This document shows, in pieces, positions 3,464-47,732 of a stretch of DNA of 64,000 bases; within the stretch, counting starts at the first letter, position 1; each line of letters begins with the position of its first letter. The translations under genes and the position numbers were made by a program. The notes below the pieces were generated by a model. It had not been told where the DNA came from. It did not search any database and saw only the letters and a program-made list of their open reading frames with translations. Source of the stretch: Candidatus Yanofskybacteria bacterium (GTDB taxonomy: Bacteria > Patescibacteriota > Minisyncoccia > 2-02-FULL-40-12 > GWA2-44-9); assembly GCA_003151795.1 (NCBI GenBank), contig PLYL01000008.1, positions 3,103-67,102 on the forward strand. Reading direction: 5' to 3'.

Positions 3464-4285
3464 ATGATTAAAAAATTTCTATTATTAACACTATTGGTAT
3501 TAGCAGGGTTATCTTTTTATTTTCATCATGGCGTTCAAGCGGCGGGAACCGCAACTATCACCGCCAATGGCCAAAGCGGCATTGTTTGGGTCCCGCTTTG
3601 GTCTCAACCAACAATAGCGTGGACTTCAGATGCCAGCACTTGCGATGTTTTTATCGGTACGAATCAAGGCCATGGATCAGAGCCTTGGTCCTCGGGCCAT
3701 CCCAGCTATACCGCGACTTCTCCGCCGATTGGGGCAGACACGGTATTTTTCTTGGTATGTTATACCTCGCCCGATTTCGCGAACCCGTCTAGTTCCGACG
3801 AAGTAACCGTGAGGCCTCTTCCAGCCCCCACCGCCTCCATCATCGTCAATGGCTCACATGATGTGACCACATCCGTTCCTTCTGGAACTGCCGTAGAAGT
3901 AACATGGTCTTCCAATGCCACTTACTGCCAGGTGCATCGCGGTGACGCCACAAATGACGGCCCAATTGCCTGGGAAGGTGCAAATGGTGACGTCAGTACT
4001 CCTATTACGTCATACACTAGATTTCGTTTATATTGCCAGGGTCCGAACGGTTCAGCTTTTGACCAAGCCTCGGTGGATGTGTCTGCTCCACCCGCCGTCG
4101 TTACGCATATCAGTTGTGACCCGGGTACCGTAGCATATGGCGGATCATCAAATATATCTTGGTCTTCAAGTTATGCCTCGTCATGCACGGTCTCGCCGGG
4201 CGGCTGGTCGGGAATTTCCGGCGGGCCTAACTCGACCGGCACGCTTTACTCCTCGACGACTTACACGATAAGTTGCAGCCGGTAA
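3464..4285 (+). CDS. secreted protein sharing a ~90-aa domain (near-identical at DNA level) with 577..3006
   Basis: signal peptide MIKKFLLLTLLVLAGLSFYF; segment ITANGQSGIVWVPLWSQPTIAW... shared with upstream protein. Confidence 0.75.
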   Translation: MIKKFLLLTLLVLAGLSFYFHHGVQAAGTATITANGQSGIVWVPLWSQPTIAWTSDASTCDVFIGTNQGHGSEPWSSGHPSYTATSPPIGADTVFFLVCYTSPDFANPSSSDEVTVRPLPAPTASIIVNGSHDVTTSVPSGTAVEVTWSSNATYCQVHRGDATNDGPIAWEGANGDVSTPITSYTRFRLYCQGPNGSAFDQASVDVSAPPAVVTHISCDPGTVAYGGSSNISWSSSYASSCTVSPGGWSGISGGPNSTGTLYSSTTYTISCSR

Positions 4286-4292
4286 CAACTAA

Positions 4293-4322
4293 AATCCGCC
4301 CGCTTCGGCGGGTTGATTTTAG
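4293..4322 (+). terminator. rho-independent terminator
   Basis: aatccgcc/ggcgggtt stem, loop cgcttc, then gatttt. Confidence 0.65.
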
Positions 4323-4360
4323 TTGACCAAAAGTCATTTTTTTAGTACTATTTTCGAATT

Positions 4361-4906
4361 ATGATTGAAACACATCCCTTACCGGTTCACGTGGTGCGTA
4401 TCAAATTATTGAAGTCGCTTTTGGCGATGATTGAGAACTCTGCCAAGGGTGGCAACAACTATTTTTTCCGTAATTTATGGGCCGACGAAGACGGTAAAGA
4501 AATTGATATTTTGGAAAACGGTCAAAATTCGTGCTGTGCGCATGTGACTTGGATTTTGTATCTCCTGAACGATACCTTGGAGTATGCTAAAAAACCACAC
4601 TGGATAAAGTTTAAGCACGCGACGGTATTTTCGACCGAAAAAGATTTGCTGGCGAACGGCTGGTTTGAGATTAAAGACCATCGGCCCGGGGCGGTAATTA
4701 TCTGGGAACCGAGAACGGCTTCGGTGCACGGACTTTTGGGCGACAAAAACGCGGAGCTTCAGCACATTGGTTTTTGCGTCAGCGAGACCGAGGCGATTAG
4801 CAATGATTCCAAAAAGACAGGCTTCCCAGTTCGCCACCACATTACTTACAATGAAACTCGGCCGATTAAAAAAATTCTCTGGCATCCGGAGCTAGATAAT
4901 GACTAA
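4361..4906 (+). CDS. putative papain-like (C39-like) cysteine peptidase, paralog of next gene
   Basis: Cys motif NSCCAHVTWILYLL and downstream His (SVHGLLG) arranged like next ORF. Confidence 0.45.
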   Translation: MIETHPLPVHVVRIKLLKSLLAMIENSAKGGNNYFFRNLWADEDGKEIDILENGQNSCCAHVTWILYLLNDTLEYAKKPHWIKFKHATVFSTEKDLLANGWFEIKDHRPGAVIIWEPRTASVHGLLGDKNAELQHIGFCVSETEAISNDSKKTGFPVRHHITYNETRPIKKILWHPELDND

Positions 4907-4908
4907 TC

Positions 4909-5442
4909 ATGCAAGACATTAAAATCGAAGCCCCACTTTGCAATCAGTATGATAAAGCCCACGACGAATCGTGGGCTTATCGGATGTGCGCGCCGTGCTC
5001 GCTTTGGATGCTTCTGAAGCATCATGATTCAGGGTTTGCTTTATCGCCCTTGGATTTGCGTGACAAACTTATGGCCCGCGATGGCTATCTAGAGAATATC
5101 GGCTTTAAGCATCAGGCCATCGCCGATATGGCTCGCGAATACGGGCTGCCGCTCACGTACGCGAAGAGATTTTTTTACACGCCAGAAGAAAAGGAAATTG
5201 GGATGGCAATCATCGACAAAAATCTGGAAGCTGGCCAGCCGATCATGGTTTCTATGTTCTCACATTTTAATCCGGCTCGGGGCGGCCACATGCTTGTCAT
5301 TCACGGTCTGCAGAAATTTAATGGCGTAACAATCGGTTATTATATCCAAAGCTCCGACGCTTCGTTCCGGGGTCATAATTATTTCGTTACCAAAGAAGAA
5401 TTCGTCCCTAACTGGCGCGGAGGATTGGTGTATAAGGACTAG
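4909..5442 (+). CDS. peptidase C39_2-like cysteine peptidase
   Basis: MCAPCSLWMLL (cf. C39 CGPTSLAMVL nucleophile motif) and GGHMLVIHG His motif. Confidence 0.55.
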   Translation: MQDIKIEAPLCNQYDKAHDESWAYRMCAPCSLWMLLKHHDSGFALSPLDLRDKLMARDGYLENIGFKHQAIADMAREYGLPLTYAKRFFYTPEEKEIGMAIIDKNLEAGQPIMVSMFSHFNPARGGHMLVIHGLQKFNGVTIGYYIQSSDASFRGHNYFVTKEEFVPNWRGGLVYKD

Positions 5443-5490
5443 CAAAAACCCTCAAATTGTGATAGATTTTGGCTACCCAAATTGATATTT

Positions 5491-5567
5491 GGGGGTGTAG
5501 CTCAATTGGTTAGAGCGCGTCCCTGTCACGGACGAGGTTGCGGGTTCGAGTCCCGTCACTCCCGCCA
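5491..5567 (+). tRNA. tRNA-Asp (anticodon GTC)
   Basis: cloverleaf folded by hand: acceptor GGGGGTG/CACTCCC, anticodon stem CGTCC/GGACG with loop CTGTCAC, T-loop GGTTCGAGT, encoded CCA. Confidence 0.9.
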
Positions 5568-5624
5568 GTAAAAATGATATGATTCCCAAAGGTCGATGTA
5601 CTTAATTAACCTAATTACAAAACT

Positions 5625-5780
5625 ATGATAAAAGGAAATTTTCTTGGGGCGGCGATTGTCGCAATAATCTACACGGTCTATATCGTATGGAATCCTCTTG
5701 CGGCGAAAGGACACACAGTATTGATATTGGTGATTCTTAACGCTTTGACTATCGTGTTGATGGCTTTTGCATTCAAATGA
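5625..5780 (+). CDS. small hydrophobic protein (51 aa, two predicted TM helices)
   Basis: ATG..TGA ORF MIKGNFLGAAIVAIIYTVYIVWNPLAAKGHTVLILVILNALTIVLMAFAFK, below track cutoff; sits just upstream of ABC transporter. Confidence 0.3.
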   Translation: MIKGNFLGAAIVAIIYTVYIVWNPLAAKGHTVLILVILNALTIVLMAFAFK

Positions 5781-5807
5781 CACAAAGTTGAAATAAGAAG
5801 TTTCTAC

Positions 5808-6602
5808 ATGAACAATATAATTGAGGTCAGGAACCTCACGAAAAAATTCGATCATTCAAACGCCGTCGACGACGTGTCTTTTTCGGTGGCTGAAGGCGAG
5901 ATTTTTGCTTTTCTCGGGCCGAATGGCGCCGGCAAATCGACGGCCATCAGAATGCTGACGACCTTGCTCCACCCCACCAGCGGCACCATGGCCATCAATG
6001 GATTGGATCCCGTCCAGAAGCCCGATGCGGTTCGGCGGATGTTCGGGATTGTTTTTCAAGACCCCAGCCTGGACGATGAATTAACCGCTTGGGAAAATAT
6101 GGAATTTCACGGGATACTCTACGATATTCCCAATCCTTTGCGCCGAGACCGCATGAAGCAACTTCTTGAATTCGTCGAACTCTGGGACCGCAAAGATGAT
6201 TTAGTGAAAGAATTTTCCGGCGGGATGAAACGGCGCCTGGAAATCGCCCGGGGCCTGCTCCATCATCCGAAAATTATTTTTCTCGATGAACCGACGCTTG
6301 GCCTTGATCCGCAAACTAGAAACGGGATGTGGATGTATCTCAAAGAGCTGAATAAGAATGAAAACACGACCATTTTTTTCACCACGCACTACATGGAAGA
6401 AGCCGAGCGCATCGCCCAAAGAATCGCCATCATCGACCACGGGAAAATAATCGCTTCAGGAACATCGGAGGAATTGAAACGGCAAACGGCCACCGCTTCA
6501 CTCGAAGAAGCTTTCCTGAAGCTGACCGGAAAAACAATCCGCGACGAATCCGTTGGTTCGGCCGAGCACATGCGGACGGCCCGGCGCATGTGGCGGAGAT
6601 AG
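5808..6602 (+). CDS. ABC transporter ATP-binding protein
   Basis: Walker A GPNGAGKST, signature SGGMKRRLEIA, Walker B IFLDEPT. Confidence 0.9.
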   Translation: MNNIIEVRNLTKKFDHSNAVDDVSFSVAEGEIFAFLGPNGAGKSTAIRMLTTLLHPTSGTMAINGLDPVQKPDAVRRMFGIVFQDPSLDDELTAWENMEFHGILYDIPNPLRRDRMKQLLEFVELWDRKDDLVKEFSGGMKRRLEIARGLLHHPKIIFLDEPTLGLDPQTRNGMWMYLKELNKNENTTIFFTTHYMEEAERIAQRIAIIDHGKIIASGTSEELKRQTATASLEEAFLKLTGKTIRDESVGSAEHMRTARRMWRR

Positions 6603-39947: not shown

Positions 39948-40466
39948 ATGGGGAAAGCTCTGGAAAGAGGTGTTATTGCCACTAAAATCGACCAGCGTCT
40001 TTATAAGAACGCCGTTTTGTATTTTATTAAGTACTGTAATAATCGTTATCTCCACCAAACTAAACTTAACAAGCTTTTGTATTATTTAGATTTTATTTCC
40101 TATCGTGATAATAAAAAATCAGTTACGGAGGATGTTTATATTCATAAGCAATATGGTCCAGTGCCTGCACACGCAGATGAGATATTGACTCAACTCAAAC
40201 AGCAAGGTGCTATTGGAACAAGTATGTCTTCCCACAAAGACGGAGAGATGATAAGTTTTGAATTGAAAGATGAATCGCAATTAGATGAATCGGTTTTTTC
40301 TCCAGAACAAAAGAAGCTCCTCAAAGAAATTTGTGATGAGTTTGGGGGTTGGCCAACTGAAAAGATTGTTGCCCAAACTCATTTAGAAGCTCCTTGGTTT
40401 TATTCAAAGCCTTATGAAATCGTCGATTATGCCTACGCACAAGACATCGGTTTCTTCAGGAAATAA
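39948..40466 (+). CDS. Panacea (DUF4065)-domain putative antitoxin
   Basis: TKLNKLLYYLDF…HKQYGPVPAH… pattern typical of DUF4065 phage-associated proteins; AT-rich. Confidence 0.55.
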   Translation: MGKALERGVIATKIDQRLYKNAVLYFIKYCNNRYLHQTKLNKLLYYLDFISYRDNKKSVTEDVYIHKQYGPVPAHADEILTQLKQQGAIGTSMSSHKDGEMISFELKDESQLDESVFSPEQKKLLKEICDEFGGWPTEKIVAQTHLEAPWFYSKPYEIVDYAYAQDIGFFRK

Positions 40467-40474
40467 TCAGAGCC

Positions 40475-40858
40475 ATGTCGTGGGTATATATCGAGAGAGA
40501 GCAATTTGTCCGTATGTGTGACAAACTGGATATATCAGCCACCGTCAGAGAATCTATAAAATCATGGGCACCCACTGTATCTAGATATGAGATACCACGC
40601 CAAAAACTAGTTTATCGGTCTCCTAAAAATAAATATGAAGCTTGGGCTGCTGGGCTTCCTAACCCAGATAGTAATAAAGGTAAAAGTGGTGGCTACAGGG
40701 TTGTTTATTATCTAGATCTTATTGAAAAAACGATAAACTTGGATTTTATTGAGGATAGAAAGAATCTAGGTTTTAAAGATGAAGGTCATCGTAAAAAAGA
40801 CGGCTATAATGATTATATTCGTGGTCTCAAAGAATTTTTAAAAGAGAATGATTGTTAA
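40475..40858 (+). CDS. HigB/RelE-like (Gp49-type) putative toxin
   Basis: KGKSGGYRVVYYLD… motif characteristic of HigB-2/RelE-family toxins. Confidence 0.55.
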   Translation: MSWVYIEREQFVRMCDKLDISATVRESIKSWAPTVSRYEIPRQKLVYRSPKNKYEAWAAGLPNPDSNKGKSGGYRVVYYLDLIEKTINLDFIEDRKNLGFKDEGHRKKDGYNDYIRGLKEFLKENDC

Positions 40859-40894: not shown

Positions 40895-40981
40895 TGGTGC
40901 CGCTGGTCGGACTCGAACCGACAAGGGATTGCTCCCACGACATTTTGAGTGTCGCATGGTTGCCAATTTCATCACAGCGGC
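40895..40981 (-). tRNA. tRNA-Leu (anticodon CAA), long variable arm
   Basis: acceptor GCCGCTG/CAGCGGC, anticodon stem CGACA/TGTCG with loop CTCAAAA, variable hairpin GGGAgcaaTCCC, T-arm GTCGG-TTCGAGT-CCGAC, CCA. Confidence 0.85.
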
Positions 40982-42711: not shown

Positions 42712-42996
42712 ATGGATACATTCTTAATTATAGGAGTAGTTGCGATTATCTGGATTTTAGAATCGATTAAAAAAGTACTTGTAAGCATTAGAACATTACT
42801 TGAATTACCCTCGAGCGCCAAGAAAAAATATGATGAAGAATTAAGTAAATTAAGTGATGAAATTGAAACAGATCGTATTGCGGTATTAATTTCTCCGTCC
42901 GGCGAAGTCGAAAATGGGTTCAAAAAACACCTAGAAGAGTTAATTGAAAAACGGAAACATATTTTAGAACAAAGAAAGAAATACTTTCACGATTAA
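42712..42996 (+). CDS. hypothetical small membrane/coiled-coil protein
   Basis: ORF starting at parB stop. Confidence 0.45.
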   Translation: MDTFLIIGVVAIIWILESIKKVLVSIRTLLELPSSAKKKYDEELSKLSDEIETDRIAVLISPSGEVENGFKKHLEELIEKRKHILEQRKKYFHD

Positions 42997-43004
42997 TCCG
43001 AAAC

Positions 43005-43034
43005 AACCAAAAACCGCCTAGGCGGTTTTTGGTT
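43005..43034. terminator. bidirectional terminator, perfect palindrome aaccaaaaaccgcctaggcggtttttggtt
   Basis: read directly. Confidence 0.8.
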
Positions 43035-43040
43035 AGAGTC

Positions 43041-43229
43041 CTATCTCTTTTTCTTCGGTGCTCTCTGGGAAAGATCGCTAGCTGCAACAGATTTTTTCTG
43101 TCGGTGAGAGGTTTTCTTATCCCTCAACATCTTAGAAGCGATTTTCGCCATCTTTGCTGATGTTCTTCTGCTTTTAGGCATAGGAAGAAAGTAAATGGAA
43201 TAATTTTCGGCAATAACACGTGGCCGCAT
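43041..43229 (-). CDS. small basic hypothetical protein (uncertain)
   Basis: 62-aa Lys/Arg-rich ORF ending just before terminator. Confidence 0.25.
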   Translation of the reverse strand: MRPRVIAENYSIYFLPMPKSRRTSAKMAKIASKMLRDKKTSHRQKKSVAASDLSQRAPKKKR

Positions 43230-43634
43230 CCAGCAAGTTCTACCTTCACTGATTTCAGGAAATGCTGTTTCAGTTATTGTTTCTCGACATTTACCCCAAG
43301 TACTGGTTTAAGTTATTTGGATTTTTCAAGGCGACCAAATTCGATAGTCCGGCTATATTATATAAAAATAAAAAACTTGACGAAAGGTTAATAAGAATGG
43401 TTTGGGGACAACTTTGTGGACAACTAAAACAAGCGAAGTGATTGCTATTTTTCTCAATCTGCACAATCGGCTCTATTTCAGCGACTCTGACGCTATTTCT
43501 CTGGGTACCGAACCGAGGATGTCGAAAACGGCCCGTTAGGGCCGCATGGTTCGACAGGAGTTGCTTCGGTCGGTCAGAGAAATTAGGAAGAGTCGTTAGA
43601 AATAGTCCGAGCGGAAGCCTGAGAAAAATGGCAA

Positions 43635-43925
43635 TTACGGAGCGACCTTTTTGGTATTCTTGCACTTCGGGAAATTGGAGCAGGCTTTGAACTTGCCGAA
43701 CTGGCCAGTGCGGATGATGAAGTGGCCGGTACCGCATTTGTCGCAGACTTCGTCGGTCATGACGGGGGCGTCGGCGCCGGTGGGCGGAGCTTTCTTTTCG
43801 ATATATTTGCAGTTCGGATAATTCGAACAGGCAGTGAAGTTGCCAAACTTCCCAGACTTTACAACCAGATTGCCGACATGGCATTCGGGACAAGTTTTTC
43901 CGGCGTTGTTTTTTGGGTCAGACAT
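43635..43925 (-). CDS. topoisomerase-type C4 zinc-finger protein (two zinc ribbons)
   Basis: CPECHVGNL…ACSNYPNCKY and CDKCGTGHF…ACSNFPKCK. Confidence 0.65.
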   Translation of the reverse strand: MSDPKNNAGKTCPECHVGNLVVKSGKFGNFTACSNYPNCKYIEKKAPPTGADAPVMTDEVCDKCGTGHFIIRTGQFGKFKACSNFPKCKNTKKVAP

Positions 43926-43929
43926 GAAA

Positions 43930-44157
43930 TTAGAGAAGTTTTTTAAAATCTTCGATTGAAATATTGATGTCGCGGATAATTGCTCGCAGAGTGCCACGAG
44001 GAATATCTTTGCCAGCATGGCGAGCGACCACCGCTCGACGGCCATCTGGGTGTTTAAAAATTACGTGCGAGCTACCGGTTTCGCGATGTTCTAAAAATCC
44101 AAGTTTATGGAGGATCTGGATTAATGCCCGATCTTTAATTACGGGAAGAGGAGACAC
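43930..44157 (-). CDS. hicA: HicA-like mRNA interferase toxin
   Basis: …LHKLGF…GSSHVIFKHPDGRRAVVARHAGKDIPRGTL… HicA pattern. Confidence 0.7.
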   Translation of the reverse strand: MSPLPVIKDRALIQILHKLGFLEHRETGSSHVIFKHPDGRRAVVARHAGKDIPRGTLRAIIRDINISIEDFKKLL

Positions 44158-44159
44158 GG

Positions 44160-44390
44160 CTAGGCGGTGAACTGAATACTTTCAAAAACCTCAATCCCTC
44201 TATCTTCCGGAATTGCTTCTCCATCGGCCTTGAGGCTACGGAGATACACGTCGATGGCATCACGTACATTGGCTCGTGTTTCTTCTAGAGACTCACCCCA
44301 CGTATGACAGCCTGGCAAGGCGGGAACAGAGGCGTGAAAAGTATTATTTTCATCTGGTTCAATAATAATGCGATATGTATAGGATTTCAT
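44160..44390 (-). CDS. hicB: HicB-like antitoxin
   Basis: …FHASVPALPGCHTWGESLEETRANVRDAI… HicB/UPF0150 pattern. Confidence 0.65.
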   Translation of the reverse strand: MKSYTYRIIIEPDENNTFHASVPALPGCHTWGESLEETRANVRDAIDVYLRSLKADGEAIPEDRGIEVFESIQFTA

Positions 44391-44399
44391 AATCTGATT

Positions 44400-46745
44400 C
44401 TAGGATTCTTTAGATGAAGTGTCAATGACAGCGATTTCCCCACTAGTAGAATCTTCAATGGCCTTCGGCTTTTTGGGAGTTGAAAATTCACTACCCGGCT
44501 TAGGCTTTCCATATTTTTTAGCAGGTTTAACTGGTTTTGATTTCCATATTACCAATGCTTCCTGCAGTTCGGCTTCGCTTTCGGGTTTCTTGCCCATCAG
44601 GAAGGTACAATCGGGCCAGCGGGAACAGGCATAAAAGAGTTTACCACGGCCGCGGGATTTTTTCTCCACAACATCGCCAGTCAGACAGTTCGGGCATTTG
44701 AATCCGGTCTTGTTGAAGATTTTGGAAATACCCTTACATTTAGGATAATCGACACAACCGAGGAAATAGCCGAAGCGCCCGCGGATTACTTTCATGGGTT
44801 TGCCGCAGATAGGGCACATTTCGCCTTTGGTTTTTTCTTCCAGTTCTTTTATTTTGGCGGCTTCTTCGGGCATAGGAAGCGAAACTTTGCTCCCAGGTTC
44901 GGGACAGGCGAGGAATTTACCGTTGCGTCCGAATTTAACGAGCATCATTTTACCGCAGTGCGGGCAAGGCGTAGTCGATTCGACGATTAGTTTTTCGACG
45001 AGTTCCGTTTTTTCTTTTAAGTTCTTGGCGAAAGGCGCGTAGAATTCTTCCACCACCGGCACCCATTTAATTTTGCCTTCGGCAATATCATCAAACTCTT
45101 CTTCAATGTGCGAGGTGAAATTTATGTCGATGACTTCTGGGAAGTTCTCAACGAGCATGTCGTTGACCGAAAAGCCAATTTCGGTGGGTTTATATTTCTT
45201 GTCTTCTTTTTCGACGTAGCCGCGGTCCTGAATCGTGGTGAGGGTCGGCGCATAGGTCGAAGGACGGCCGACGCCCGCGGCTTCAAGGGTTTTAATGAGC
45301 GAGGCGTCGGTGTATCTGGGCGGCGGTTCGGTGAAGTGCTGGTCTTTGGCGAGCTTAATCAGATTTAATAATTCTTTTTGGGACAATTCCGGAAGTTGGC
45401 CGTCTTCGTATGAGTCTTCTTCAGTCTTTTCGTCGTCTTCTTTGGTTTCGGTATAGGCGCGGATGAAGCCGTCAAATTTAACCGCTTGGCCGTTGGCGCG
45501 GAAGGTGTATTTTCTTGATTCTTGATTCTTGCTTCGTGCTTCTATATCCGCGGCGGTTTGGTCGAGAATGGCAACCTGCATCTGGCAGGCGATGGTCCGT
45601 TTCCAGATCAAGTCATAGAGGCGGAGCTGGCCGGAATCCAAATCTTTGTCGAGACTGTCGGGCAAGCGGGATAAATCGGTGGGCCGGACGGCTTCGTGAG
45701 CTTCCTGGGCGCCTTTGGATTTGTTGAGGAATGAGCGGGGCGCGTCGAGGCAATATTCCTTGCCAAATTGTTTCTTGATGACTTCTTGGGCTTGAGCCAG
45801 GGCAATTTCCGAGATATGCAAACTGTCGGTGCGCATGTAGGTAATCATGCCGGTTTCGTATAATCTCTGGGCCAAGGTCATGGTCTGTTTGGCGGAGAAG
45901 CCGAGTTTCTTGGCTGCTTCTTGCTGGAGAGTGGAAGTCGTAAATGGCGCGGGCGGGGTCCGTTTGACTTCTTTTTTCACGACGTCGATGACTTTATATT
46001 CGGCGCCGACTAATTCGTCGGTAATTTTTTTAGCGTCGGCTGGATTTTTAATGCCCAATCGGTCGATTGATTCTTCGCCCCCGCCTGGCCGGCCGGCAGG
46101 GATTTTGACGAGCCGAGCTTTGAAAGTCTTGTCCTCGTCTTTTTTAGAAAGGTCGGCTTCGACGGACCAGTATTCTTGGGGCGTGAATTTTAGGATTTCG
46201 CGTTCGCGCTCCACGACGAGGCGGACGGCGACGCTTTGGACGCGGCCCGCGGAAAGGCCGGAGCGGATTTTTTTCCACAGGAAGGGCGAGAGTTTGTAAC
46301 CGACGAGGCGGTCGATGATGCGCCGGGCCTGTTGGGCGTCGACGAGATTCTGGTCGAGCTGGCGGGGATGAGCGATGGCTTTTTCAATCGCGGGTTTGGT
46401 AATTTCATGGAAGACGACGCGTTCGGTCTTGCCGGCCGTGGTTTTCTTATCCAGGCCGAGGGCGTGGGCGAGATGCCAGGCGATGGCTTCGCCTTCGCGG
46501 TCCGGGTCGGTGGCGAGAATCACCATGTCGGCTTTGGCCGCCGCGGTTTTGAGTTCGCTGACAATCTTCTTGGCTTTTGTCGGAATAATATATTCAGGTT
46601 TGAAATCGTGGGCGATATCGATGCCGATGCCTTTCTTGGGTAAGTCGCGGATATGGCCGAAAGAGGATTTAACGACAAAATCGCCGCCGAGGAAGCGGGA
46701 GATGGTTTTAGCTTTGGTTGGGGATTCGACGATTATTAACTGCAT
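44400..46745 (-). CDS. topA: DNA topoisomerase I
   Basis: Toprim N-terminus, catalytic core, three C-terminal zinc ribbons, Lys-rich tail. Confidence 0.95.
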   Translation of the reverse strand: MQLIIVESPTKAKTISRFLGGDFVVKSSFGHIRDLPKKGIGIDIAHDFKPEYIIPTKAKKIVSELKTAAAKADMVILATDPDREGEAIAWHLAHALGLDKKTTAGKTERVVFHEITKPAIEKAIAHPRQLDQNLVDAQQARRIIDRLVGYKLSPFLWKKIRSGLSAGRVQSVAVRLVVEREREILKFTPQEYWSVEADLSKKDEDKTFKARLVKIPAGRPGGGEESIDRLGIKNPADAKKITDELVGAEYKVIDVVKKEVKRTPPAPFTTSTLQQEAAKKLGFSAKQTMTLAQRLYETGMITYMRTDSLHISEIALAQAQEVIKKQFGKEYCLDAPRSFLNKSKGAQEAHEAVRPTDLSRLPDSLDKDLDSGQLRLYDLIWKRTIACQMQVAILDQTAADIEARSKNQESRKYTFRANGQAVKFDGFIRAYTETKEDDEKTEEDSYEDGQLPELSQKELLNLIKLAKDQHFTEPPPRYTDASLIKTLEAAGVGRPSTYAPTLTTIQDRGYVEKEDKKYKPTEIGFSVNDMLVENFPEVIDINFTSHIEEEFDDIAEGKIKWVPVVEEFYAPFAKNLKEKTELVEKLIVESTTPCPHCGKMMLVKFGRNGKFLACPEPGSKVSLPMPEEAAKIKELEEKTKGEMCPICGKPMKVIRGRFGYFLGCVDYPKCKGISKIFNKTGFKCPNCLTGDVVEKKSRGRGKLFYACSRWPDCTFLMGKKPESEAELQEALVIWKSKPVKPAKKYGKPKPGSEFSTPKKPKAIEDSTSGEIAVIDTSSKES
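45514..45542. repeat. in-frame dispersed-repeat copy inside topA (encodes EARSKNQESRK on - strand)
   Basis: cttgattcttgattcttgcttcgtgcttc. Confidence 0.45.
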
Positions 46746-46868: not shown

Positions 46869-47732
46869 TTATTCTGACTTGCGAAAAATTCCGCCGGCCA
46901 TTTGTTTGATATGGCCCTGGATTTCCATGAGCGCGAGTGCGCCCATAACTTCTGACGCGCCAAACTTACTCTCTTCTATGATAGCGTCGATGTTTAAAGG
47001 GCCGTGTTCTTCGAGCACCGCAAGAATAGTAGCATGGGTTGGGTCGATTGTGGAGAGACGCGAAGATTTTGCGAGGGGAAGTTTGGAATAATCATCCAGG
47101 ACATCATGCGCAGAGGCGACTAGTTTTGCGCCGGTCCGAATGAGTTTATGCGGGCCCATCGATTTCGATGAAAAAATATTTCCCGGCACTGCGAAGACAT
47201 CGCGATTCTGTTCTCCGGCCAGCCGAGCTGTAATTAAAGAACCGCTCTTTTCATCGGCTTCGATAATGAGAACACCTTTTGATAAACCACTGATGATACG
47301 GTTTCGTTCGGGGAAGGACTGCTTGCCCGCTGGCTTCTTGCCAGGATGCTCGGAAATTATTAAGCCATTATTTTTCAAAATATCCAGCCCGAGCCGACGG
47401 TTTGTTTCCGGCGTTATAGTATCAATGCCTGAACCAAGGATGGCGATGGTCTTGCCGCCGCAATCAAGCGTGGCGCGATGGGCGACAGCATCAATACCCA
47501 AGGCTAGACCGCTCACAATCGTGAAATGGCGGGCGAGGCCAGGGACAATTTGCTGGGCGGCTTCTCGGCCATAGGGCGTCATCGAGCGCGTGCCGACGAC
47601 GGCGAAGCATTCCGTTTTGAATAACGCGATATTTCCACGGCAATATAAAACTTCCGGCGGATCCGAAATGTGTTTCAGGAGTTTCGGATAAGCCTTTGAT
47701 GTTCGCTCGACTTTGATGACGGGATAATCCAT
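46869..47732 (-). CDS. dprA: DNA processing protein DprA/Smf
   Basis: VGTRSMTPYGREAAQQIV…GLALGIDAVAH pattern. Confidence 0.85.
   Translation of the reverse strand: MDYPVIKVERTSKAYPKLLKHISDPPEVLYCRGNIALFKTECFAVVGTRSMTPYGREAAQQIVPGLARHFTIVSGLALGIDAVAHRATLDCGGKTIAILGSGIDTITPETNRRLGLDILKNNGLIISEHPGKKPAGKQSFPERNRIISGLSKGVLIIEADEKSGSLITARLAGEQNRDVFAVPGNIFSSKSMGPHKLIRTGAKLVASAHDVLDDYSKLPLAKSSRLSTIDPTHATILAVLEEHGPLNIDAIIEESKFGASEVMGALALMEIQGHIKQMAGGIFRKSE

Follow-up and report, generated by a model that had tools for sequence, protein, structure and literature searches.

We analyzed a 64,000-nt stretch of a Candidatus Yanofskybacteria contig (PLYL01000008.1), referred to here as the window, in which a two-gene toxin-antitoxin (TA) module of the hicBA type lies between topA and a small gene, here called ZnF, that encodes a protein made of topoisomerase-type zinc ribbons. 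The genes and features of this locus, given as positions in the window and in the order of transcription, are as follows.

46869 to 47732, minus strand: dprA, a 287-aa open reading frame (ORF), the first gene of a conserved dprA-topA-ZnF arrangement.
44400 to 46745, minus strand: topA, 781 aa, matching TIGR01051 at 794 bits, with Toprim and Topoisom_bac domains and three PF01396 stretches.
43930 to 44435, minus strand: the hicBA cassette insert of ~506 bp, comprising promoter, hicB and hicA, as delimited by empty-site comparison.
44397 to 44425, minus strand: the predicted cassette promoter, TTGACA, 17 nt, TAGAAT.
44160 to 44390, minus strand: hicB, 76 aa, ATG start, PF15919.
43930 to 44157, minus strand: hicA, 75 aa, GTG start, PF07927.
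43635 to 43925, minus strand: ZnF, 96 aa, ATG at 43925, two PF01396 zinc ribbons.
43522 to 43546, minus strand: a possible, tentative intrinsic terminator of the operon, a hairpin GCGGCCC-UAAC-GGGCCGU followed by UUUC, read from the sequence.

The genes are tightly packed, with 9 nt between topA and hicB, 2 nt between hicB and hicA and 4 nt between hicA and ZnF. An earlier sequence-only reading had recognized a HicB-like protein of 76 aa and a HicA-like protein of 75 aa directly after topA on the same strand, as well as a 96-aa two-ribbon protein directly downstream of hicA; the ORF list and Pfam agree with this layout, with the matches to PF15919, PF07927 and PF01396 (the last in two stretches of ZnF) all far above gathering scores. 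The mechanically called ZnF ORF reaches 44045, overlapping hicA, and the position of the MSDPKNN-type sequence is the start in all homologues. DprA of the window is 76-80% identical to the DprA encoded 5' of topA in the related contigs L002, L003 and L087 (L-numbers denote contigs used for comparison), and DNA_processg_A is the Pfam domain recorded for the DprA orthologues.

Comparison of topA neighbourhoods among these relatives yielded both empty and occupied versions of the site. In all eight independent contigs without hicBA (L002, L005, L007, L168, L170, L172, L174 and L176), topA is followed directly by ZnF, with a gap ranging from a small overlap to ~150 nt and amounting to 10-11 nt in L002, L005 and L176. 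L002 is a Pacebacteria metagenome-assembled genome and L007 belongs to Yanofskybacteria; L002 and L176 are empty sites with the TopA type of the window, and the other six carry another TopA type. A hicBA module between topA and ZnF was found only in the window, in L001 (a 1.2-kb contig identical to the window) and in L003/L004. A further carrier, L087, which emerged from a HicB scan of metagenomes, has dprA-topA-hicB-hicA followed by an opposite-strand membrane-protein gene and then parB, with no ZnF. The suggestion of the sequence-only reading that a TA module had inserted next to topA is thus borne out by the eight empty sites vs. the occupied sites of the window, L001, L003/L004 and L087, hicAB not being universally present in these topA neighbourhoods.

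The boundaries of the insert can be read from L176, whose TopA ends in KTIEDSPVAE, at the residue corresponding to E770 of the window, followed by TAA, 11 nt and the ATG of ZnF. The empty site in L176 reads ...GCGGAA TAA TAAATAACAAA ATG(ZnF), vs. ...GGGGAA and then, past the junction, ATCGCTGTCATTGACA...(hicB, hicA)...TAA TTTC ATG(ZnF) at the occupied site in the window, where the topA frame runs 11 codons beyond residue 770 (residues 771-781, IAVIDTSSKES) to a TAG. Taken together, the end of L176 TopA at E770, the 11 extra codons and the 4-nt gap between hicA and ZnF delimit an insert of ~506 bp, from 44435 to 43930. The last eight TopA codons (IDTSSKES, IDASSKKS or IDTSPKKS) occur in the three hicBA carriers only; the sequence 5' of this shared tail is unalignable among the carriers, and TopA of L002 and of L176 ends differently. 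The empty/occupied-site comparison shows the insertion and its boundaries. In addition, the junction between the topA stop and the hicB start is near-identical across all carriers, and it is mainly this shared junction that argues for a single gain of hicBA. We conclude, with a probability of roughly 0.8, that a hicBA unit of ~506 bp with its own promoter inserted into the ~10-nt spacer between topA and ZnF, the conserved downstream neighbour of topA in this clade.

Several points weigh against this conclusion. The gain of hicBA could have been followed by its precise loss in L002 and L176. DprA and ParB identities place L002 outside the three carriers; TopA, for its part, places L087 outside. 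The left junction falls in a fast-evolving, low-complexity TopA tail, and an aligner weakly matches the -35 region to the tail of L002 TopA (12/22 nt), the picture in L176 being much clearer. Moreover, L087 has hicBA after topA but no ZnF, which indicates that ZnF is dispensable at the position downstream of topA in at least one relative. Our attempt to derive the order of events from DprA, TopA, ParB and ParA identities failed, as these markers disagree on the branching of the window, L002, L003 and L087.

Given that the cassette lies exactly between topA and ZnF, one might suppose that the TA insertion itself cut a continuous topA and severed its last two zinc ribbons. Indeed, the two final main ribbons of the typical three- or four-ribbon Patescibacterial TopA align with ZnF in the same order at 42-47% identity, and the ZnF ribbons are closest to ribbons 2 and 3 among the TopA units (52% and 50% for ribbon 2, 47% and 45% for ribbon 3, and least, 37%, for ribbon 1). 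However, L002 and L176 have no hicBA and yet have a topA stop with a separate ZnF ATG 10-11 nt further on; separate topA and ZnF genes are also present in L005, L007, L168, L170 and L172; and TopA of the window retains three ribbons of its own plus a Lys-rich tail. Because of the empty sites we consider this explanation refuted and give it virtually no chance. ZnF is a separate gene in every context lacking hicBA, so the split was not caused by the TA insertion, and we favor an insertion into an already existing spacer. The other proposal of the sequence-only reading, that ZnF is a split-off TopA module, therefore survives in part: its colinearity and ribbon likeness make an older split plausible, but not one brought about by the TA module. 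Of the eight contexts without hicBA, five have a TopA that bears ribbon 1 alone (66% identical to its typical counterpart) with two Toprim_C_rpt repeats behind it; outside the clade of the window, no three-ribbon TopA was observed with a stand-alone ZnF behind it. It is plausible that ribbons 2-3 became a separate ZnF gene through an ancient split or displacement that long preceded the TA insertion.

The TopA of the window itself has a different relationship to its neighbours. It is 88% identical to that of L002 over the full length and 77% identical to that of L176 over the C-terminal 193 aa. With its three ribbons and Lys-rich tail, it is only 46% identical to L005 TopA (3818-5989) vs. 67% for DprA, 75% for ParB and 86% for ParA of the same contig, and it is nearer to a Saccharibacteria TopA (55%); L007 TopA (3643-5847) was also compared with window TopA (44400-46745). 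This low identity of TopA against the high identity of its flanks in L005 suggests that topA may have been replaced in situ in the clade of the window, with ZnF retained. The triple repeat noted earlier at the TopA C-terminus holds insofar as there are three PF01396 stretches, but four cysteines are found only in ribbons 2 and 3, ribbon 1 (CPHC...LAC) having three.

The second element of our reading is the promoter. A consensus scan identified TTGACA-17-TAGAAT on the minus strand, with 11/12 consensus matches, as the best match in 5.3 kb. The -10 hexamer TAGAAT starts with the topA stop codon TAG and ends 6 nt 5' of the hicB ATG, so that a leaderless hicB mRNA is predicted. This element is kept in L003 (TTGACG/TAGAAT) and L087 (TTGACA/TAGAAT) while the 44 nt upstream are unalignable; a 39-nt block is conserved among the window, L003 and L087, with conservation breaking sharply 5' of the -35. 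Of the 46 non-redundant related cassettes, 29 have a promoter scoring at least 9/12 that lies no more than 12 nt from the ATG, vs. 4.8% of shuffles, and in 27 of these 29 promoter-bearing cassettes the -10 ends 6-9 nt before the ATG. On this pattern, the predicted promoter is part of the mobile unit and its distance to the start codon is a family trait; in the lineage of the window, the putative cassette promoter has become part of the topA frame, the 5' end of the cassette encoding the 11 added residues of TopA and its stop codon. That it is active and that hicB is translated from a leaderless mRNA is what we infer from these positions, and it speaks against too firm a statement that a sigma-70-type consensus match is no proof of function and that Patescibacterial promoters are poorly characterised.

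The promoter-like sequence might instead be coincidental, with hicBA and ZnF expressed solely by read-through from topA and hicB translated internally. Consensus scans yield false positives (7 sites vs. 4.7 expected in this region), and with a topA-hicB gap of only 9 nt, read-through is certain to contribute. On the other hand, coincidence would have to account for the best match in 5.3 kb, for -35/-10 elements that recur at the same ATG distance in well over half of the cassettes examined, in unrelated contexts and far above the frequency in shuffles, and for a block that is kept in three carriers while the adjacent TopA tail is unalignable. We deem read-through as the sole source of expression unlikely, and continue to regard the cassette as bringing its own promoter.

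To gauge the age of the cassette, we compared non-synonymous (dN) and synonymous (dS) divergence between the window and L003, with these results.

hicB: dN 0.02, dS 1.32.
hicA: dN 0.084, dS 0.82.
topA: dN 0.097, dS 1.15.
ZnF: dN 0.205, dS 1.73.

The comparison of the window with L087 gives the same picture. The synonymous divergence of hicBA, being like that of topA, together with low dN/dS, indicates an old module, passed on vertically and maintained by selection. By these estimates, the cassette has diverged in step with its neighbours; purifying selection acts on it, most strongly on hicB, and it is neither recent nor decaying. A base-composition profile over 38-50 kb of the window showed no anomaly of GC or skew at hicBA, which is compatible with an old insertion, yet does not detect it; a search of the rest of the window for a second hicA/hicB copy or a ZnF fragment found none. 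Chromosomal TA modules often decay, and one could picture hicBA as a decaying, non-functional relic of a selfish element, a mere passenger, all the more so as HicB is short, short HicBs can come from truncation according to PMC10865869, and hicA has a weak GTG start. Nevertheless, the two ORFs have stayed intact in the window as well as in L003 and L087 despite near-saturated synonymous sites, dN/dS is ~0.015-0.03 for hicB and 0.03-0.10 for hicA, the catalytic-motif histidine is kept, and HicBs of the family cover the first 72-76 of 76 query residues, which fits the argument against truncation made by Gerdes. We therefore consider decay very unlikely and take the module to be an old one maintained by selection.

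Beyond the topA locus, hicBA modules 55-83% identical to that of the window occur at more than 50 other metagenomic loci with no topA nearby, and a 706-kb contig bears two copies; judged by this distribution, the hicBA cassette is mobile. At L097, L099, L101, L106, L109 and other hicBA loci, the cassettes finish with a conserved TAATTTTTCTCAAAGAAC motif, behind which lie ~100 nt rich in hairpins; some loci repeat this motif on the same strand at intervals of 500-630 nt. In L099 (4933-6087), two tRNA genes enclose hicBA and a second cassette (a 50-aa ORF and a DUF2283 protein), the cassettes being bordered by a 31-nt direct repeat. Loci of this type may be small arrays of mobile TA-like cassettes. 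Rfam found no match for the structured sequence 3' of the related cassettes. We considered integron-like cassettes and set them aside: TAATTTTTCTCAAAGAAC misfits the attC R''/R' consensus, the flanking sequence examined showed no integrase, and the window retains only TTTC. In L087 (5464-6256), where a 177-aa membrane-protein ORF on the opposite strand takes the place of ZnF, the spacer after hicA keeps TTTTCTCAACGAA, resembling the 3' motif of the family.

As for the proteins of the module, HicB matches PF15919 (HicB_lk_antitox) at 2.3e-13 and 50.8 bits vs. a cut-off of 27, over profile positions 1-63 of 123, and a HicB-like PHROG family at 1e-14; its relatives in the PDB include the N-domain of Burkholderia pseudomallei HicB (6G1C, residues 3-57, 8.6e-7), and it also matches the short Thermus proteins TTHA1756 and TTHA0281. 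It has the partial RNase-H-like domain that constitutes the N-terminal neutralising domain. No C-terminal helix-turn-helix (HTH) or ribbon-helix-helix (RHH) DNA-binding domain was found in HicB, which ends at residue 76 and matched no DNA-binding family; it is accordingly not a classical HicB of Gerdes Classes 3/4. HicA matches PF07927 (HicA_toxin) at 1.9e-18 and 66.8 bits vs. a cut-off of 27, over profile positions 3-58 of 58, and a PHROG toxin family at 3.6e-15, with TTHA1913 (1WHZ, 4e-10) as its closest relative in the PDB and B. pseudomallei HicA (4C26/6G26) at 5e-5. The segment G28-S29-S30-H31 is present, with H31 aligning with the conserved His of TTHA1913; at odds with this, the alignment with B. 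pseudomallei HicA puts S30, not H31, opposite the catalytic H24. Beside the 1WHZ alignment, the G-S-N-H pattern of E. coli HicA supports H31 as the presumed catalytic His. The GTG start of hicA is kept in L003 and L087, and in all but one of 32 family loci the two genes either overlap by 8 nt or are separated by 2-15 nt, a spacing consistent with translational coupling. PADLOC has no defence-system model that matches HicA, HicB or ZnF, leaving an anti-phage role unsupported.

In the scheme of Gerdes 2024 (PMC10865869), Class 2 hicBA has hicB before hicA, a HicB of 63-103 codons without a DNA-binding domain, and closely linked genes; the class is described there as common and experimentally untested, with the regulation of Classes 1 and 2 an open question, and short HicBs as able to arise through truncation. 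By its gene order, a hicB of 76 codons, the 2-nt gap and the lack of a DNA-binding domain, the module in the window is a Class 2 hicBA, sharing with that class the hicB-hicA order, the small HicB and near-contiguous genes, with a HicA here of 75 aa. It differs from the class as portrayed in that text in that 1) the copy in the window is fixed inside a housekeeping operon, dprA-topA-ZnF; 2) its predicted promoter has become the 3' coding end of topA; and 3) a promoter ending 6-9 nt before the hicB ATG is not described in the passages of PMC10865869 consulted. With the classical hicAB systems of E. coli, Burkholderia pseudomallei and Yersinia pestis (6G26, 4C26), it has in common a HicA of the same family, the neutralising N-terminal domain of HicB and presumably the mechanism, in which HicA cleaves RNA and HicB covers HicA via helix alpha1 of the RNase-H-like domain (PMC10865869). 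In contrast to these systems, the gene order in the window is reversed and its HicB has neither the C-terminal HTH nor the RHH, so that operator autoregulation and conditional cooperativity could not follow the classical scheme.

ZnF matches PF01396 (Zn_ribbon_Top1) at 2.4e-28 and 98 bits vs. a cut-off of 32, in two stretches and nothing else, and follows the Cys-x2-Cys ... Cys-x(3-9)-Cys pattern of these ribbons. A homology search returned 47 proteins, nearly all of 75-160 aa; those with a named source come mostly from Patescibacteria (Pacebacteria, Yanofskybacteria). None of the 8 Cys varies across 29 aligned homologues, nor do the beta3 aromatics F30 and F79. ZnF matches the C-terminal domains of E. 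coli TopA in sequence at 2e-11, with F79 aligning with Y728 of D7, and its predicted model consists of two three-stranded ribbons whose top Foldseek matches are 4RUL and RNA polymerase (RNAP)-TopoI complexes at probability 1.0. The confidence of this model is moderate only (pLDDT 69, pTM 0.35), which counts against leaning on it heavily. In E. coli TopA, the beta3 aromatic stacks on bases of single-stranded DNA (ssDNA) and is needed for processive relaxation (PMC4678816). Judged by its invariant F30 and F79, ZnF appears to be of the ssDNA-binding type. With D5-D7 of E. coli TopoI (4RUL; 9GDA-9GDH), it shares the fold, four Cys per ribbon and the beta3 aromatic, but it is a separate polypeptide, and hence can act only in trans.

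A further close comparison is E. coli YrdD (38-39% identity, BLASTP 2e-20), likewise small and composed of Top1-type 4-Cys ribbons only, for which PMC4678816, citing Cheng et al. 2014, reports Zn-dependent ssDNA binding. YrdD has about four ribbons in 180 aa vs. two in 96 aa for ZnF, and E. coli has its functional topA elsewhere, whereas ZnF lies directly behind an intact topA. E. coli yrdD sits in smf(dprA)-smg-yrdD-tsaC, occupying the place after dprA that topA holds in many bacteria; in L075, from Legionella, dprA is followed by topA after a gap of ~490 nt. On these grounds, ZnF is best described as a YrdD-like stand-alone protein of Top1-type ribbons, encoded apart from the topoisomerase core. 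Short proteins of this kind abound: among the best 150 cluster representatives, 99 have <350 aa and 30 the size of TopA, and 979 cluster representatives score at or below 1e-10. We found no literature on zinc ribbons of Topo I in the Candidate Phyla Radiation.

Further observations concern ZnF and its surroundings. In L003 (6242-6774, also in L004), a GIY-YIG nuclease ORF (2e-18) lies within the 3' part of the ZnF gene, and a 54-aa fragment after it is a remnant of the original second ribbon, nearer to the ZnF of the window than is the intact L003 copy; this looks like an insertion of the homing-endonuclease type that brought a replacement 3' end. The stretch from ZnF to the convergent parB differs in every relative (window 42996-43635; L002 6294-7317; L003 6294-9359), with a dTDP-sugar isomerase gene in L002, Fic and unknown ORFs in L003 and small unannotated ORFs in the window, and it appears to be a local hot spot of gene turnover. 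In the window, a 151-nt region 3' of ZnF (43490-43640, minus strand) folds at -47.9 kcal/mol (z = -3.95). The candidate terminator it contains has a short U-run and was not called by the consensus scan, and an Rfam scan of the window returned a single tRNA only, with no family for the folded region.

How such a module might work can be pictured as follows. HicA would act as a ribosome-independent RNase with a G-S-x-H catalytic histidine, and HicB would neutralise it via the partial RNase-H-like domain; with no DNA-binding domain in HicB, operator autoregulation of the module is probably not to be expected. Transcription of hicBA would come both from topA read-through and from the near-consensus promoter of the cassette, which, ending 6 nt before the ATG, would give a leaderless hicB mRNA. 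From its weak GTG, 2 nt past the hicB stop, hicA would be translated by coupling, leaving the antitoxin in excess. Because there is no terminator and only a 4-nt gap after hicA, ZnF would be carried on hicBA transcripts, and its product probably acts alongside TopA. The toxicity of HicA, the ssDNA binding of ZnF and the cooperation of ZnF with TopA are each surmised.

With the three genes 2 and 4 nt apart on one strand and no terminator between them, hicB, hicA and ZnF could also form one functional unit, in which ZnF supplies the nucleic-acid binding (e.g. of an operator, or in target recognition) that is missing in a HicB without a DNA-binding domain, and the acknowledged open question of Class 2 regulation (PMC10865869) leaves room for this idea. 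Their distributions tell otherwise: in eight independent contexts ZnF comes after topA with no hicBA present, ZnF is missing from the vicinity of more than 50 related hicBA cassettes, and L087 has topA-hicBA without ZnF; furthermore, Top1-type ribbons bind ssDNA through base stacking and not duplex operators (PMC4678816). As hicBA and ZnF are distributed independently, a three-gene unit is largely refuted and is, in our estimate, very improbable. We retain the view of a self-contained TA cassette placed in front of an older partner of topA.

A bolder extension of this view, which we consider doubtful, is that ZnF would be a trans-acting, detachable TopA module ("split TopA") conserved in a large clade of Patescibacteria, that the long-fixed hicBA would provide a strong leaderless-type promoter driving ZnF independently of topA, and that Class 2 modules would run unautoregulated, with the toxin:antitoxin ratio set by a constitutive promoter, a leaderless antitoxin mRNA and coupled translation of the toxin.

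Elsewhere in the window (39948-40858, plus strand) lies a likely second TA-like pair, consisting of a 172-aa protein with a SocA/Panacea antitoxin domain (3.7e-19) and, 8 nt further on, a 127-aa ORF with no family match. This pair is in a low-GC stretch (0.34-0.41) beside a tRNA-Leu(CAA) gene (40895-40981, minus strand) that was detected by ARAGORN alone.

hicB, hicA and ZnF are all members of known families, i.e., known kinds of genes and not a new system, and the leads offered by the promoter layout and by the topA-ZnF pair leave the understanding of these gene families unchanged. The locus is nonetheless a clean natural example of a TA cassette embedding itself in an essential operon, with empty and occupied sites both available, in which the predicted cassette promoter was absorbed into the upstream frame and the module was then kept under purifying selection until synonymous sites were near saturation. 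The placement of a putative promoter 6-9 nt before the antitoxin ATG in most members of the family bears on the open question of how Class 1 and 2 hicAB modules are regulated. Finally, the conserved pairing of topA with ZnF, with a TopA that usually has the first ribbon only, suggests that the ssDNA- or RNA-polymerase-binding tail of TopA may be partly supplied in trans in many Patescibacteria.

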